Virus record (IMG/VR): IMGVR_UViG_3300020450_001133
Origin: a virus
Lineage: Duplodnaviria > Caudoviricetes
Reading direction: 5' to 3' (one strand)
DNA: 64,000 nucleotides
Shown here: one piece after another, positions 18,381-57,531 of the stretch
How positions within the stretch are numbered: position 1 is the first letter of the stretch
Layout of the letters: each line of letters begins with the position of its first letter
Program-made: the position numbers and the translations under genes
Notes under the pieces: model-generated
The model's input: only the letters and a program-made list of their open reading frames with translations
The model's database searches: none
Told to the model about the DNA's origin: nothing

Positions 18381-19763
18381 TTATATGTCATTTTTCTTCA
18401 TAAACTCACGCATGTTTAAAGCAGTATTGATTGTGCTCTTGTTATCATCGTCTTCTGCTTTAATACTGTTACCTCTTTTTAGTTGGTCTATTAGGTTAGA
18501 AGATTGCATTGTCATTGCTTCTTCCTCATCTTCATCTAAGTCTTCTACTCTCAATGTATCAGGATTAAACTTCAAGTCTACTTTACTGCCAACACCACTA
18601 CTAGAACGTGTTTTCATAAACTGTATTTGATATCTACCACGTTCTCTCATAGCATTACTGGTAAATATGCCCACAACATTGTCAGCAGTTTGTATTTTAC
18701 TAATACCACCTGCAATATGGTGGTGGTCAAATTCTATTTCTTCTACTGCACCTCTGTTCAACTGCGATGCAGTTACAAACAATGTGCCTGTTTCCATTGC
18801 TAAATTACGCAATTCTTCGGACACATACTTGTCTTTAATAAACAAATCACCTGGACTTACTCTTGCACTAATAGGACTCATTAAATCCAAGTAGTCTACA
18901 AGTATTGCATCTACTTTAACTTCTGTGTTTATTTCATATTCTCTAACAAATGCCCTTATATCGTTAGCAGTTACACCACTAGCCATTTGTTTTACCCTAA
19001 ACTTACCAGCACCTTTACCTTTCATACGCACTTTTAAGTCCACATCATCCATGTTTCTCATAATCTCTTTTGTGCTATATTCACTAACCATAGCATCAAG
19101 ACGCATACTAATTAATTGTTCACTTAATTCTAAACTAATATAAACTACATTAAGTCCTGCTAAACTCCAGTTCACACCTAAGTTTTGTAAGAATAAACTT
19201 TTACCTGCACCACTACCACCAGCAAAGATTGTAATCTCTCCTCTGTTTAGTCCACCATACAGTTTTTGGTCAAACTTTTTCCAACCTGTGCTTACTGCAC
19301 CTGCTTGACTCTTAATGTATTGTAATCTTTCTTTTGGATTTTCAAAATACTCTAGTCCTAAGTCTTTGACTAAACTTACTTGACTTGCATCTTTAATTTT
19401 ATTTTCAACTGCACCATAATCTGCTTTTTCTAACAAGTCTGTGCTATCAAGTATTGCCTTTTCCAATGCTTTGTGTCTACAAAATCTTTCAAAACTATCT
19501 AAAAACCATTCTGTATGATTTTCAGTTATGCCTTCAATACGTTCTAGTTCAACACCTGTTGTTGCAGTTATTTGGTCAATAGTAGGAATACTGCTATACT
19601 CAGTACTATGTTGTTTTAAAAATGTAACTGTGTCTTGATATTTTCTATTAAACATGTAAGGTTCAACAATATTGTTTACCCTAACAAACAGTTCAGGGTC
19701 AGAAACAAGAAACTTCAAGAACATTTCTTGTATTTCTTCTGTGTATTCTGTAATATTATCCAT
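18381..19763 (-). CDS. gp41: DnaB-like replicative helicase (T4 gp41 family)
   Basis: Walker A GGSGAGKS, ISLELSE, LVDYLDL, TASQLNR, KTR motifs. Confidence 0.93.
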   Translation of the reverse strand: MDNITEYTEEIQEMFLKFLVSDPELFVRVNNIVEPYMFNRKYQDTVTFLKQHSTEYSSIPTIDQITATTGVELERIEGITENHTEWFLDSFERFCRHKALEKAILDSTDLLEKADYGAVENKIKDASQVSLVKDLGLEYFENPKERLQYIKSQAGAVSTGWKKFDQKLYGGLNRGEITIFAGGSGAGKSLFLQNLGVNWSLAGLNVVYISLELSEQLISMRLDAMVSEYSTKEIMRNMDDVDLKVRMKGKGAGKFRVKQMASGVTANDIRAFVREYEINTEVKVDAILVDYLDLMSPISARVSPGDLFIKDKYVSEELRNLAMETGTLFVTASQLNRGAVEEIEFDHHHIAGGISKIQTADNVVGIFTSNAMRERGRYQIQFMKTRSSSGVGSKVDLKFNPDTLRVEDLDEDEEEAMTMQSSNLIDQLKRGNSIKAEDDDNKSTINTALNMREFMKKNDI

Positions 19764-19768
19764 GCTTA

Positions 19769-20629
19769 CTAATTATCCTCTAATAATTCTCTGTTTACAA
19801 TTTCTTTGTACAGTTCTGTTGCAATACGTTTATGTCCTTTATCGTTTGGGTGCATATCATCTGCACTAACAACATTTCCTGCCATCATGGCACTGAATGG
19901 GTACATAGTCCATCTTTTTCTGTCTATCATATCTCTTAATTGTATTAAAAATGTATTTGGTTTTGTGTTTAATACATTCCACACATGGTCAATACCTCCT
20001 GTAGGTCTTCCCATATGACATATACTAGACATTGATGAAAACAAATATGGTATATTTTTATTACTTAAAAAGTTTTGTATTAACAAAATGTCTTTACAAT
20101 AATTAACCATAGTTTGATGATGATTCATCAAATATGCTTGATACATCTGCGATGCTACTTTAATATTTTTATAATATTCTGTTTGATAACCAAATTTTTC
20201 TGTAATAGTTTTATCGCCATGAGCTTCTCTGGCTTCATGTGGTATCCATACAAGTGGGTGACCAAATTCATCTAATGCCGTGTCTTGTGTTCTTGCTTGG
20301 GCATCATTAACTGAATTTGTAGGTACAAGTCCAAAATACTGACTCCAGTCATCATTCCAAAATTCATATCTAAATGGTGATGTCCATTGTATAACAACTA
20401 AGTCTGGATTATGTTTTCTAACACCTTCTATTGTGGTTCTTGCTATTCTATTGTTACTGCCTCCGCCAAAGCCATAATTAATTGTTTCAATTTTTCCATC
20501 AAAAAGTTCTTCTAGCCTAAAGGGCCAAACATATGGTTGAGGTGGATTAGTTTCTCCTGTGAGGTAATTTTGTACCTCACCGTGTCCATGTGTAAAACTA
20601 CATCCATTTACTAAAACTTTTTTAGTCAT
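19769..20629 (-). CDS. SGNH/GDSL-hydrolase-like protein
   Basis: NGCSFT (block I), GGGSNN, DxHP-like DMHPNDKGH at C-terminus. Confidence 0.65.
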   Translation of the reverse strand: MTKKVLVNGCSFTHGHGEVQNYLTGETNPPQPYVWPFRLEELFDGKIETINYGFGGGSNNRIARTTIEGVRKHNPDLVVIQWTSPFRYEFWNDDWSQYFGLVPTNSVNDAQARTQDTALDEFGHPLVWIPHEAREAHGDKTITEKFGYQTEYYKNIKVASQMYQAYLMNHHQTMVNYCKDILLIQNFLSNKNIPYLFSSMSSICHMGRPTGGIDHVWNVLNTKPNTFLIQLRDMIDRKRWTMYPFSAMMAGNVVSADDMHPNDKGHKRIATELYKEIVNRELLEDN

Positions 20630-21603
20630 AACATTTTTGCCTTAACTTGATTCTTTATTTTATTATCACTTGCAAATTTAACAATACTTGCAAGTGTCAG
20701 TAACTTACCATATTTATTCACTGCATCAGCGGCATCTTTACATTCATTGCTCCAAGGTGGAAAACTTATTTCCCAGCCTAATTCTATTGCTTGGTCAATT
20801 AAGTCTTTACCAGCACTATCTCTATCAGGACATAATATAACACGTTTGTTAAGTTTGTCTATTAGATGTGCTTGTTCTGGTGTAACACCATTTCCTAAAA
20901 CACTTATACCATCTATAAGTATTGCATCAAATACACCTTCAACTACAACAACGAAATCTCTGTCGTTGTCTACAAATTTGTCTATGTTAAACACATAACC
21001 ACTTTGCATATTTAACAAATATTTTGCAGTTTCTTTGTTAGGTGGATTTATATGTCTGCCTGTCCAACCAACAAGTTCATTGTTATATAAAAACGGAACA
21101 ACCAATCTTGCATTGTACATACTATTATTAATATGCAATAGAGGGTAGTTGCCAAACAATCCACGTTCAATTGCATACTGTTTAACTTTGTGGTCGTCGG
21201 GTAAATTATCTACAAATTGTGTGTCCTCTGGCAAATCAACTTTTTTAAAGTTTGCCGCACTATACACATAATCATCTGTTTCACTTCTGTCTAATGCATC
21301 ACCATGTTTCATCAGATTCAAGACAACTTTGTGTATATCACTAGTGGATACACCCAACGACTCTACAAGTTTTTTGTATTTGCCGCCTAGTTTAGGGGAC
21401 GGTGCCCAGCCTGTTGTATAACCGCAATTAAAACAATGATAACTTATTTTAGAATTGCTTTGTATTACACCACCACGTTTTCTTTTATCACTACATACTG
21501 GACAATTAAATGTAGTCCAGCCACTAGGAGTTTTGCCTGCATTGATAGGCAAATTGTCCATTAGTAATCTGTGTACTTCGTCAACTAGTTCATGATGATG
21601 CAT
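20626..21603 (-). CDS. gp61: DNA primase (T4 gp61 family)
   Basis: Zn finger CPVC...CFNC; Toprim EGVFDA and PDRD. Confidence 0.9.
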   Translation of the reverse strand: MHHHELVDEVHRLLMDNLPINAGKTPSGWTTFNCPVCSDKRKRGGVIQSNSKISYHCFNCGYTTGWAPSPKLGGKYKKLVESLGVSTSDIHKVVLNLMKHGDALDRSETDDYVYSAANFKKVDLPEDTQFVDNLPDDHKVKQYAIERGLFGNYPLLHINNSMYNARLVVPFLYNNELVGWTGRHINPPNKETAKYLLNMQSGYVFNIDKFVDNDRDFVVVVEGVFDAILIDGISVLGNGVTPEQAHLIDKLNKRVILCPDRDSAGKDLIDQAIELGWEISFPPWSNECKDAADAVNKYGKLLTLASIVKFASDNKIKNQVKAKML

Positions 21604-22507: not shown

Positions 22508-22879
22508 ATGACTAAACATGAAGAACTACAAGAAAAGTTTCCTTTCCTCACAGGTATAGAATTTTCACAAGAAGAATTTGTAGGTATAGTACAAAATAAA
22601 GACGCACAAATATTAAGTTTTTACGATATAGAGAAGTGTAGAAACGATGAGGAAAAGAAAGTATTATTAGAATTAGGTGATTTATGGTGGTGGGAAAGTA
22701 ACAGATTATTACCCATAGATGTTTTTTTATTTCAAGAAATGCAAGAATTTAGACATTGTTTAAGAACTTTTGTACTAAAAGAGACTGAAGTATTGTTTGG
22801 TCCTGTAACAAGTATGCAAAACATACTTAAGAAAAGAATAAAAAGAAGAACAGTACAACTAGTTAAAAAAATAGATTAA
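22508..22879 (+). CDS. hypothetical late protein (123 aa)
   Basis: ORF track; WWWESNRLLPI motif; leaderless late promoter. Confidence 0.75.
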   Translation: MTKHEELQEKFPFLTGIEFSQEEFVGIVQNKDAQILSFYDIEKCRNDEEKKVLLELGDLWWWESNRLLPIDVFLFQEMQEFRHCLRTFVLKETEVLFGPVTSMQNILKKRIKRRTVQLVKKID

Positions 22880-23445
22880 CCTAATTTTTCAACCATTAAA
22901 TTTAATTGAACACAAATTGCAGTAGCATAGCCAATAGCATGACTGCGTTTAAAGAAGTAATCATCTGTTTTTGTCCAAACATCTTTTTCTACTTCCTCCC
23001 AACTCTTTCCAACCAAATATCTTTTACCTGGTCTAATCATTGCTAATATCATTGCTAACTGTTCTACACTTGTAGGCTTGTATTGTTTAACAATATCATA
23101 ATGATTGTTTATATGGAATAGTTTTTCTACTACTTCTTTGTGTTCAAATAGTTCCCATAAAGGTTCTGTTGCTAACAGTTTATCAAGATGTGTTTCATTT
23201 TTGATACCTTCATATATGTGATTATTTAGAAAGTCAACTTTAAAATAACCCATCTCTTCTGCTTCTTTATGGTCTATTGTGCTGTATCCTTCAATTGGAA
23301 AACTTGGAATAGGTTGAAAGTAGACACCAGTATTGTGTTTATCAAACACATCTTCTTTTTTAATACTCGCAGGTATATGCTCAACAAGTTCTAAAAACTT
23401 GTTTCTGTCTGCCATATCTATGTCTACGTCAAAATTAATCTTCAT
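22876..23445 (-). CDS. minimal DNA polymerase III alpha (DnaE, C-family)-like protein, 189 aa
   Basis: FDVDID, HNTGVY, YFKVDFL, IRPG, FKRSHAIGYA correspond in order to DnaE PDxDxD, HAAG, KxDFLG, RPG, FNKSHAxxY. Confidence 0.8.
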   Translation of the reverse strand: MKINFDVDIDMADRNKFLELVEHIPASIKKEDVFDKHNTGVYFQPIPSFPIEGYSTIDHKEAEEMGYFKVDFLNNHIYEGIKNETHLDKLLATEPLWELFEHKEVVEKLFHINNHYDIVKQYKPTSVEQLAMILAMIRPGKRYLVGKSWEEVEKDVWTKTDDYFFKRSHAIGYATAICVQLNLMVEKLG

Positions 23446-23475
23446 TTTTTTAATAGTATTCTAATACAGGTAATT

Positions 23476-23504
23476 ATTATACCTCCAAATACAAACCATG
23501 TCAA
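23476..23504 (-). promoter_or_regulatory. consensus sigma70 promoter for mini-DnaE
   Basis: TTGACA-N17-TATAAT. Confidence 0.85.
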
Positions 23505-30006: not shown

Positions 30007-30036
30007 ATTATACTACCATTTCCTTTGAATTGTCAA
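30007..30036 (-). promoter_or_regulatory. sigma70 promoter for uvsW embedded in 3' end of the TonB gene; leaderless spacing
   Basis: TTGACA-N18-TATAAT-acagt-ATG(30001). Confidence 0.7.
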
Positions 30037-31728
30037 CATAATTTGTCTTCCACGATTGTTATAACCTGGAAGTACTTCTACTTCTTCATCTAAGATGTTG
30101 TCTATTGTTAATGCTAAGTCAACATCATTAGCAAAAGTTTTAATGTATCTAAAAGACAAGTTTTGCAAGTCCTCTAATTCTGCTCCGTCATATGGACCAG
30201 GTATTCTTTCAAAATTACCTCTATAGGTAATATCAAATTCATGACTACCAAAGGCTTGATTCCATTTAACAACACCAACATACTTAGGCACTCTTGCTTG
30301 TTCTGTATCTGTATATTTCAGTGTAAGCATAAAGTTACCAAACCATTGCGAGTATCTAATACCTAGTGTGTCGTATGCACCAGTATTGTAATACTTTGCA
30401 TTGTAGTATTCTGTTGTGGTTGTTGTAATTGCATTACCATCTTCATCATAAGTTACAGTTGTAACATCATTACTTCCACCTGGTGCATATTCTATTGCTT
30501 CTTCAAAGTCATATTTGAAAATACTTAACACACCAAATCCTATTTCGTAACCAACACCTTCTTCAGGCAATAAGTCTAGATTTGCATCAACCCAACTATC
30601 ACCATGTAATTCATAAAGTGTAGGTCTTCTATAACTGTTACCAACATTTAAAAAGAATGGACCACTTTCTAAACCAAATCTTAATGCGTTTTGGTCTTCA
30701 TTTCCAACTCTAAAACCAAAGTTGTATTTCATGGCAAAGTCGGCATTAATATTTAAGTATGCACCGTAATTGTCTCTGCTATGTTCTTCATTGTTTAGAC
30801 TTTGATACTTCTCATGACTTGCGTCTACACCATATGCGATTTGCAATTTGTTAGATAGGTTAGTTTGGTCACCAACTCTCAAATAGTCTGTGCTACTTTC
30901 GTTAGCATATGACATCCATTCGCCTGTGTAATAATCTGCTTTGTCATGTGTTCTACCCAATGTAAAATATTCATTGTTTAATGCAATATTATATTTTTCA
31001 CCATCTTGTTCACAATTATTAGACTGATTAAAACTAGAATCATAACAGTTGTCATAATCATAACTGTAATCAGTGTAGTCCATTGTTATCCTAAAATCTT
31101 GTACATCAAAATTTAACTTTGCGTTTCTATTTGTGTACCAGTCACTTTCAGTATTATCATTTCTTACACTATCTTGGTTTATTTCCATTGCAGTATATTG
31201 AAACCATTTTGCAGGTGCAACACTAACCATTTTATGATCCTGTGAACCTAAGATTGCAGTAACACCTTGTTCAATGTTATCTTTAATCAATATAGTACCA
31301 GCAATACTACCACTACCATACACAACACTATTAGCACCAGAAATAATTTTAACTTCTTGCCCTGTTGCTAGTTCATTACCAAAATCATACCATGCACTAC
31401 CAGGCAAGTTTGCTGGTATGCCGTTTTTGTAAACAGCGGTATGTACATTTTGTGCACCACGTTCGTTATATCCTTGGAAAGCACCATAACCACCAGCAGT
31501 CCATGTATGACCGGGTAGTAATGCTCTTATAAAGGAATTACCTTTTAGTGGGTCTGCTTTTATAGTTGTGCTTTGTTGTCCCACTACCACAACTTCTTCT
31601 ATCTCCTCTGCCTGTGCTTTTGGACTTAAACATACTGCTACTGAGAACAATATCATCCATACAAAAGCCGCATACATAGGAGAAAAATTGATATGGAAGT
31701 TCCAATCAATCTTACTTCTATTACTCAT
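30013..31728 (-). CDS. TonB-dependent outer-membrane receptor, BtuB-like (571 aa)
   Basis: Signal peptide ending AQA; TonB box EEVVVVG; plug RGAQNVHTAVYKNG...SVVYGSGSIAGTI; C-terminus NILDEEVEVLPGYNNRGRQIMLTIQRKW. Confidence 0.85.
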   Translation of the reverse strand: MSNRSKIDWNFHINFSPMYAAFVWMILFSVAVCLSPKAQAEEIEEVVVVGQQSTTIKADPLKGNSFIRALLPGHTWTAGGYGAFQGYNERGAQNVHTAVYKNGIPANLPGSAWYDFGNELATGQEVKIISGANSVVYGSGSIAGTILIKDNIEQGVTAILGSQDHKMVSVAPAKWFQYTAMEINQDSVRNDNTESDWYTNRNAKLNFDVQDFRITMDYTDYSYDYDNCYDSSFNQSNNCEQDGEKYNIALNNEYFTLGRTHDKADYYTGEWMSYANESSTDYLRVGDQTNLSNKLQIAYGVDASHEKYQSLNNEEHSRDNYGAYLNINADFAMKYNFGFRVGNEDQNALRFGLESGPFFLNVGNSYRRPTLYELHGDSWVDANLDLLPEEGVGYEIGFGVLSIFKYDFEEAIEYAPGGSNDVTTVTYDEDGNAITTTTTEYYNAKYYNTGAYDTLGIRYSQWFGNFMLTLKYTDTEQARVPKYVGVVKWNQAFGSHEFDITYRGNFERIPGPYDGAELEDLQNLSFRYIKTFANDVDLALTIDNILDEEVEVLPGYNNRGRQIMLTIQRKW

Positions 31729-33758: not shown

Positions 33759-33787
33759 ATTATACCGAAATTTGTGGTGAATGTCAA
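33759..33787 (-). promoter_or_regulatory. perfect consensus sigma70 promoter
   Basis: AGG-TTGACA-N17-TATAAT. Confidence 0.9.
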
Positions 33788-57503: not shown

Positions 57504-57531
57504 ATTATACTTTATTTAAAGGGAATGTCAA
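57504..57531 (-). promoter_or_regulatory. sigma70 promoter for tRNA/fpr operon
   Basis: TTGACA-N16-TATAAT, 10 nt before tRNA-Ser. Confidence 0.8.

Follow-up and report, generated by a model that had tools for sequence, protein, structure and literature searches.

The intein-split DnaE of cyanobacteria (Ssp and Npu DnaE) is encoded in two pieces, and trans-splicing inteins join its halves into full-length DnaE. A second split was described by Iyer, Anantharaman, Krishnan, Burroughs and Aravind (Iyer et al. 2021, Viruses 13:63; PMC7824862), whose section 3.4.1 sets out a split minimal DNA polymerase III alpha of group 2.2 jumbo phages and likewise proposes an auxiliary role in DNA synthesis. 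The first-pass annotation of the DNA studied here had supposed that similar short DnaE-like ORFs might already be noted in jumbo phages, and this 2021 computational prediction is such a record. Recent GenBank records annotate the family, as 'DnaE-like DNA polymerase III alpha' for Phosso and PAC2; the unit genes go unmentioned in the PA5oct omics paper.

Here we analysed a 64,000-nucleotide stretch of a Caudoviricetes virus (IMG/VR record IMGVR_UViG_3300020450_001133; the window) that encodes a 189-aa ORF of this family. This ORF, the C-unit, is very likely the C-terminal half of a two-piece, ~350-residue minimal Pol III alpha-like nucleotidyltransferase, auxiliary to a family-B replicase. The group holding the split enzyme comprises the RaK2 / PA5oct / Atu_ph07-like, T4-related jumbo phages (group 2.2). 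The C-unit is 39-53% identical to the Phosso, PA5oct-like and RaK2 proteins, with the same length, the same DxD start and the same place beside primase and helicase, and relatives have a distant partner gene, the N-unit; the clade of the present copy is marine, uncultured and highly abundant in ocean metagenomes. A fused form of the two units, a strictly conserved convergent 123-aa neighbour and a conserved third acidic residue, D10, go beyond the text of Iyer et al. where it treats the split. The features of the window used below are as follows.

18381-19763: DnaB-type helicase, downstream of the C-unit.
19769-20629, minus strand: DUF6071 / GDSL-like hydrolase gene, 286 aa, between primase and helicase.
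20626-21603: Toprim primase, downstream of the C-unit.
22508-22879, plus strand: convergent 123-aa ORF (phrog_11637), its stop overlapping the C-unit stop.
22876-23445, minus strand: C-unit coding sequence, 189 aa, ATG start (ORF call, phrog_11778, profile, AlphaFold2 model).
22924-23034, minus strand: finger motifs, R138-P139 through F165-K-R-S-H169-A-I-G-Y173-A174.
23233-23241, minus strand: codons K69-V-D71, equivalent to E. coli K553/D555, the latter the third catalytic Asp (HMM alignment to 2hnh).
23416-23430, minus strand: codons D6-V-D8-I-D10; D6/D8 equivalent to E. coli D401/D403, via the fused protein P0211 aligned to DnaE 319-417.
23476-23504, minus strand: sigma-70 promoter TTGACA-17-TATAAT, 12/12 match, its -10 ending 30 nt before the ATG.
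30007-30036, 33759-33787 and 57504-57531, minus strand: other perfect promoters.

Genes for a tail sheath and a large terminase are also in the window, and the phage is a T4-related myovirus. Downstream of the C-unit lie, in order, the convergent 123-aa ORF, a 270-aa virion structural protein, the primase, the DUF6071/GDSL-like gene and the helicase; upstream are ThyX, a C2H2 zinc-finger protein, adenine-salvage genes and a UvsW-type helicase. Synteny of this replication block (UvsW-primase-helicase) is kept from RaK2 to marine contigs. The DUF6071/GDSL-like gene is present in two tandem copies in the marine relatives L087-L089, and in RaK2 and PAC2 the primase directly adjoins the helicase. 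Within the block, 30013-31728 (minus strand) encodes a 571-aa outer-membrane-receptor-like protein without a PHROG match, whose counterpart in marine relatives has a weak TonB Plug match. RaK2 ORF117 (L001:733-1554), a DnaQ-like 'DNA polymerase exonuclease subunit', lies 5 kb upstream of the RaK2 C-unit and might proofread for the mini Pol III in the way that epsilon does for alpha; at the corresponding position, the window showed no counterpart. A separate B-family replicase had been assumed from the T4-like character of the phage. The 64-kb window contains no family-B polymerase, and an ORF of 825-1013 aa for one was found in all five complete relatives.

All five DnaE motifs that had been read from the letters are present in the translation of the 189 aa in the order given: FDVDID (residues 5-10), HNTG (37-40), KVDFL (69-73), IRPG (137-140) and FKRSHAIGYA (165-174). 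By profile alignment to DnaE, R138-P139 corresponds to E. coli R639-P640, and FK(K/R)SHAxAYA to F756-NKSHSAAYA-765. Searched as a single sequence, the C-unit matched phrog_11778 ('DNA polymerase', 197 positions) at E 2.8e-68 over residues 3-187 and the full-length DnaE-type phrog_405 at E 4.7e-7. The sole Pfam match was a sub-threshold finger domain (E 0.15) and phmmer against the PDB returned nothing, so a family profile was needed. We built alignment A1 from 92 full-length family members, 30-55% identical to the C-unit. Searched against the PDB, its profile matched Pol III alpha chains only (E 1.4e-5 to 1.6e-4).

An AlphaFold2 model of the C-unit made from A1 had a mean pLDDT of 96.4 and a pTM of 0.88, and the top 18 Foldseek matches to it in the PDB were all C-family polymerases. 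VIA-align superposed 182-187 of the 189 residues on C-family polymerases (rmsd 3.5-3.6 A, Z 9.1-10.0), spanning residues 458-837 of Taq DnaE (3e0d), 397-780 of E. coli DnaE (2hnh), 417-807 of M. tuberculosis DnaE1 and 968-1295 of PolC (3f2c); the best unrelated chain reached Z 3.6. The comparison of a model with the DnaE palm, suggested in the first-pass annotation, thus matched C-family polymerases only, at Z 10. The likeness of the C-unit to DnaE is real, not chance. Equivalents of D401, D403, D555 and K553 are common to the C-unit and to DnaE (2hnh, 3e0d, M. tuberculosis 5lew) and PolC (3f2c), and the HxxG turn, the RPG and FNKSHSxAYA finger motifs and the Pol-beta-like palm strands are likewise kept.

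The 189 residues cover a 384-residue stretch of DnaE (E. coli 397-780). In the alignments, ~79 residues between the DxD and the HxxG turn have no counterpart in the C-unit, a gap that corresponds to the thumb (residues 433-510 in the domain limits of Lamers et al. 2006). The fingers are also short of about 90 (~88) residues, E. coli roughly 642-738, so that the thumb is absent and the fingers are incomplete. The GRGS (hG[GS]) triphosphate-binding loop is absent from the polypeptide, as are the PHP, HhH/beta-clamp-binding and OB domains; the ORF stops at the equivalent of DnaE 780. This agrees with the description first given of it, a drastically reduced C-family palm with partial fingers and without PHP, OB or clamp-binding domains.

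Reduction of this extent could point to a catalytically dead remnant, or to a decoy binding host replisome parts, but conservation makes this reading hardly credible. Among the 92 relatives in A1, D6, D8, K69 and D71 are at least 98% conserved and K69, D71 and P139 are invariant; conservation reaches at least 90% at D6, D8, D10, H37, G40, R138, K141, K166 and H169. This level is held by catalytic and substrate-side residues in sequences down to ~30% identity. The three catalytic aspartates claimed for the ORF are D6, D8 and D71, which align to D401/D403/D555 and are conserved 98-100%; variable aspartates, which would have marked a pseudogene remnant, were not found across the 92 homologues. 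When 1.84 billion cluster representatives were searched exhaustively with HMMER, 412 relatives (at most 50% identity) came out at E <=0.001, nearly all complete ones being 185-215 aa long, and a word-indexed search gave 1733 clusters (90% identity) with lengths of 187-198 aa, drawn mainly from ocean metagenomes. A length of ~190 aa is therefore held in hundreds of lineages, and conservation of both catalytic residues and length rules out a decaying remnant. As for a decoy, the regions of DnaE that bind the beta-clamp, tau and epsilon are not retained. Judged from these sequences, the C-unit is under selection and is probably an active minimal C-family core.

D10 (codon 23416-23418) is acidic in 96% of the mini-enzyme family, whereas DnaE has a hydrophobic residue there (PDFDVDF); D10 may serve as an additional ligand for metal or substrate. 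Megablast with a 2.5-kb query found no match among GenBank phages, and a scan of GTDB genomes found no relatives. In an exact-match metagenome scan, only Tara contigs of 25 kb and 7 kb matched.

The first-pass annotation had called the C-unit stand-alone. This did not hold: the GRGS half of the palm is missing from the ORF, and a separate gene of ~170 aa encodes it in every complete relative tested. PF07733 gave one above-threshold match each in RaK2, Phosso and PAC2, located 34, 224 and 44 kb, respectively, from the C-unit gene. With that of G007, a complete IMG/VR genome, the PF07733-positive N-unit ORFs are 161-177 aa long and end in GRGSS...EFL(K/N/R). Those of cultured phages have 169-177 aa and the C-terminus ...WG(L/V)GRGSSV(S/A)SY.LFLIG.H.V(D/N)S(L/I).Y.LD..EFL(K/N)(Y), followed by the stop. 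The DnaE counterpart of this end continues directly into PDFDVDF, where the C-unit starts. N-units finish 3-4 residues after EFL, and the C-unit starts MKINFDVDID, with only 5 residues ahead of the DxD. The end of the N-unit thus meets the start of the C-unit, which makes them exact complements with no room for an intein, and no intein halves were found at the split ends.

The comparison with Ssp and Npu DnaE is therefore one of arrangement. Both are dnaE-type polymerases encoded as two distant genes, but the phage split lies inside the palm and is without an intein-sized extension, the N-unit stopping at ...EFLK and the C-unit starting with M-x3-FDxD, and its product is a minimal enzyme.

The two units occur together. 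GenBank phage records include 96 with the C-unit and 101 with the N-unit, and the tallies by genus (C/N) run in parallel: Escherichia 34/34, Erwinia 8/8, Salmonella 8/8, Xanthomonas 4/4, Yersinia 4/4, Klebsiella 11/10 and Pseudomonas 11/13. At least one extra record on the N side is a phage with a full-length dnaE. Three IMG/VR genomes that are 94-100% complete (G007, G011 and G012) each have one of each unit, about 147-180 kb apart, and two less complete ones, G008 (51%) and G010 (71%), have both at about 160 and 183 kb. IMG/VR records with one unit missing are fragments, 17-60% complete. It had been noted that no DnaE partner or intein is adjacent to the C-unit, and there is none anywhere in the 64-kb window; tblastn with three N-units gave no N-unit there below E 1, nor was one found in close IMG/VR relatives (fragments of at most 68 kb).

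The possibility that missing DnaE domains are encoded as other split subunits, raised at the outset, was borne out for the GRGS half. The other domains searched for in the five complete relatives were PHP (PF02811) and HhH (PF14579), both absent, and the fingers, whose weak matches fall on the C-unit gene alone; no DnaE-like piece beyond the N- and C-units was found in these searches.

One metagenome contig of 2.4 kb encodes both units as a single protein. P0211 (375 aa; L172:1066-2193) is a natural N+C fusion in one frame with a joint of ~10 residues. It aligns unbroken across the junction to E. coli DnaE 319-417, which identifies DFDID with D401/D403, and the same convergent neighbour follows the fused gene. 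P0211 is the sole adjacent or fused case among 254 fetched loci, and no relatives of it were found in IMG/VR, so the fusion is known from this single contig. This rare natural fusion may show that the split is reversible in evolution. Two other long relatives appear to be chimeras produced by gene calling or assembly, one with a methyltransferase and the other with an unrelated N-terminus.

We then considered the predicted fit of the two chains. Co-folding paired the C-unit of the window (A1) with A2, an alignment of N-units headed by that of G007. The pair gave an ipSAE of 0.90, against 0.00 for the best of three controls. Of 80 solved complexes, 58 attain this mark, as do 2 of 110 mismatched pairs. 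Because a solved DnaE domain is divided between the two chains, the pass may partly stem from their resemblance to DnaE. Runs shared at least 93% of their contacts, and the pLDDT of the partner was at least 79. In the predicted interface, the DxDxD strand of the C-unit (residues 5-12) faces the WGVGRGSS loop of the N-unit (residues 122-135). The co-folded model supports binding of the N- and C-units without proving it.

These results bear on whether the 189-aa protein could be a self-sufficient minimal nucleotidyltransferase that works with no other piece of DnaE. It has three catalytic Asp, its own promoter, no adjacent partner and a confident fold when modelled alone. However, it misses the GRGS element of the Pol-beta fold, which is encoded elsewhere in complete relatives and fused to it in P0211, and its DxD strand is predicted to pack against the GRGS loop. 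We consider self-sufficiency very unlikely. In the two-piece enzyme that we favour, the C-unit supplies the DxD metal-ligand beta-strand, the KxD strand with the third Asp and cut-down fingers (RP, FKxSHxxxYA). The N-unit, of about 165-175 aa, supplies helices and the WGVGRGSS loop for binding the triphosphate of the incoming nucleotide. The units would join non-covalently, without an intein, to rebuild one Pol-beta-like palm and active site.

The convergent 123-aa ORF stands tail-to-tail with the C-unit in 164 of the 165 related loci that could hold it, from RaK2 to marine phages and at identities as low as 31%; because synteny extends over the entire block, adjacency by itself proves little. 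WW.ESNR and K(R/K).KR are invariant in it, the second of these motifs in a basic C-terminal tail. Its model (pLDDT 84) shows a small barrel of SH3/Sm-like type, a helical insert and the basic tail. Searches gave no Pfam match, no informative Atlas match and no Foldseek match at E <=0.001; the best VIA-align Z, 4.6, was to small SH3/Sm-type barrels. The 123-aa protein could be an accessory nucleic-acid-binding factor.

Transcription of the C-unit gene was considered next. The perfect sigma70 promoter near the primase, reported in the first-pass annotation, was confirmed as a 12/12 match, with the primase gene 1.3 kb away. Perfect TTGACA-N16-18-TATAAT sites number four in the window, all on the minus (coding) strand, against 0.14 expected from shuffles, and they are probably the host-type early promoter class of the phage. 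Contigs from RNA libraries cover the C-unit gene in four marine metatranscriptome libraries; such contigs show neither strand, level nor true ends and may include DNA carry-over. Those from two studies end at 23450 and 23452, between the -10 and the ATG and close to the latter, which is a weak hint. The consensus promoter suggests that the gene is transcribed early by the host RNAP, inside the UvsW / primase / helicase block.

What the assembled pair does in vivo, including its catalysis, substrate and biological role, we infer from the parts that are kept and lost and from the genes around it. Compared with bacterial DnaE, of 1160 aa in one chain, the phage pair has ~350 aa in two chains and is without PHP, thumb, the middle finger segment, HhH/beta-binding, OB and the tau-binding region. 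With a family-B replicase encoded alongside, it is, unlike DnaE, presumably not the main replicase. With thumb, part of the fingers, HhH and OB gone and a family-B replicase kept, a processive replicase is unlikely. In all lineages the gene keeps its position in the UvsW-primase-helicase block, which points instead to auxiliary synthesis at forks or in repair. Auxiliary, distributive DNA synthesis is the likely role, in the form of gap filling, primer handling or repair beside the family-B replicase.

In DnaE, the thumb, fingers, HhH/beta-binding and OB regions all grip DNA. These DNA-gripping parts are missing here, so template-directed synthesis is not assured. The pair might nonetheless be a working template-directed polymerase in which the 123-aa SH3-like protein acts as a DNA-holding third subunit in place of thumb and HhH, a tentative proposal to which we give a low probability. 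About equally doubtful is that the joined N- and C-units form a Pol-beta-fold nucleotidyltransferase that is not template-directed: a tailing enzyme or terminal transferase, a maker of signalling or modified nucleotides, or an enzyme nucleotidylating proteins or primers. Loss of the thumb, middle fingers, HhH and OB that hold primer-template in DnaE would fit such an enzyme, as would the extra conserved acidic D10 outside the DnaE motif and the complete family-B replicase of relatives. The DnaE-specific finger motifs (RP, FKxSHxxxYA) are, however, nearly invariant, the gene stays in the UvsW-primase-helicase block in all lineages and no defence or signalling genes are consistently adjacent.

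If the pair does work as a template-directed DNA polymerase, its ~350 residues in two chains would make it the smallest in the C family so far. The mini-enzyme family is very common in ocean viromes and accounts for thousands of database proteins. An active pair would define the catalytic minimum of the family of bacterial replicative polymerases and offer a tractable model of how the C family arose from Pol-beta-like nucleotidyltransferases. T4-like giant phages would then run two unrelated polymerase families side by side.
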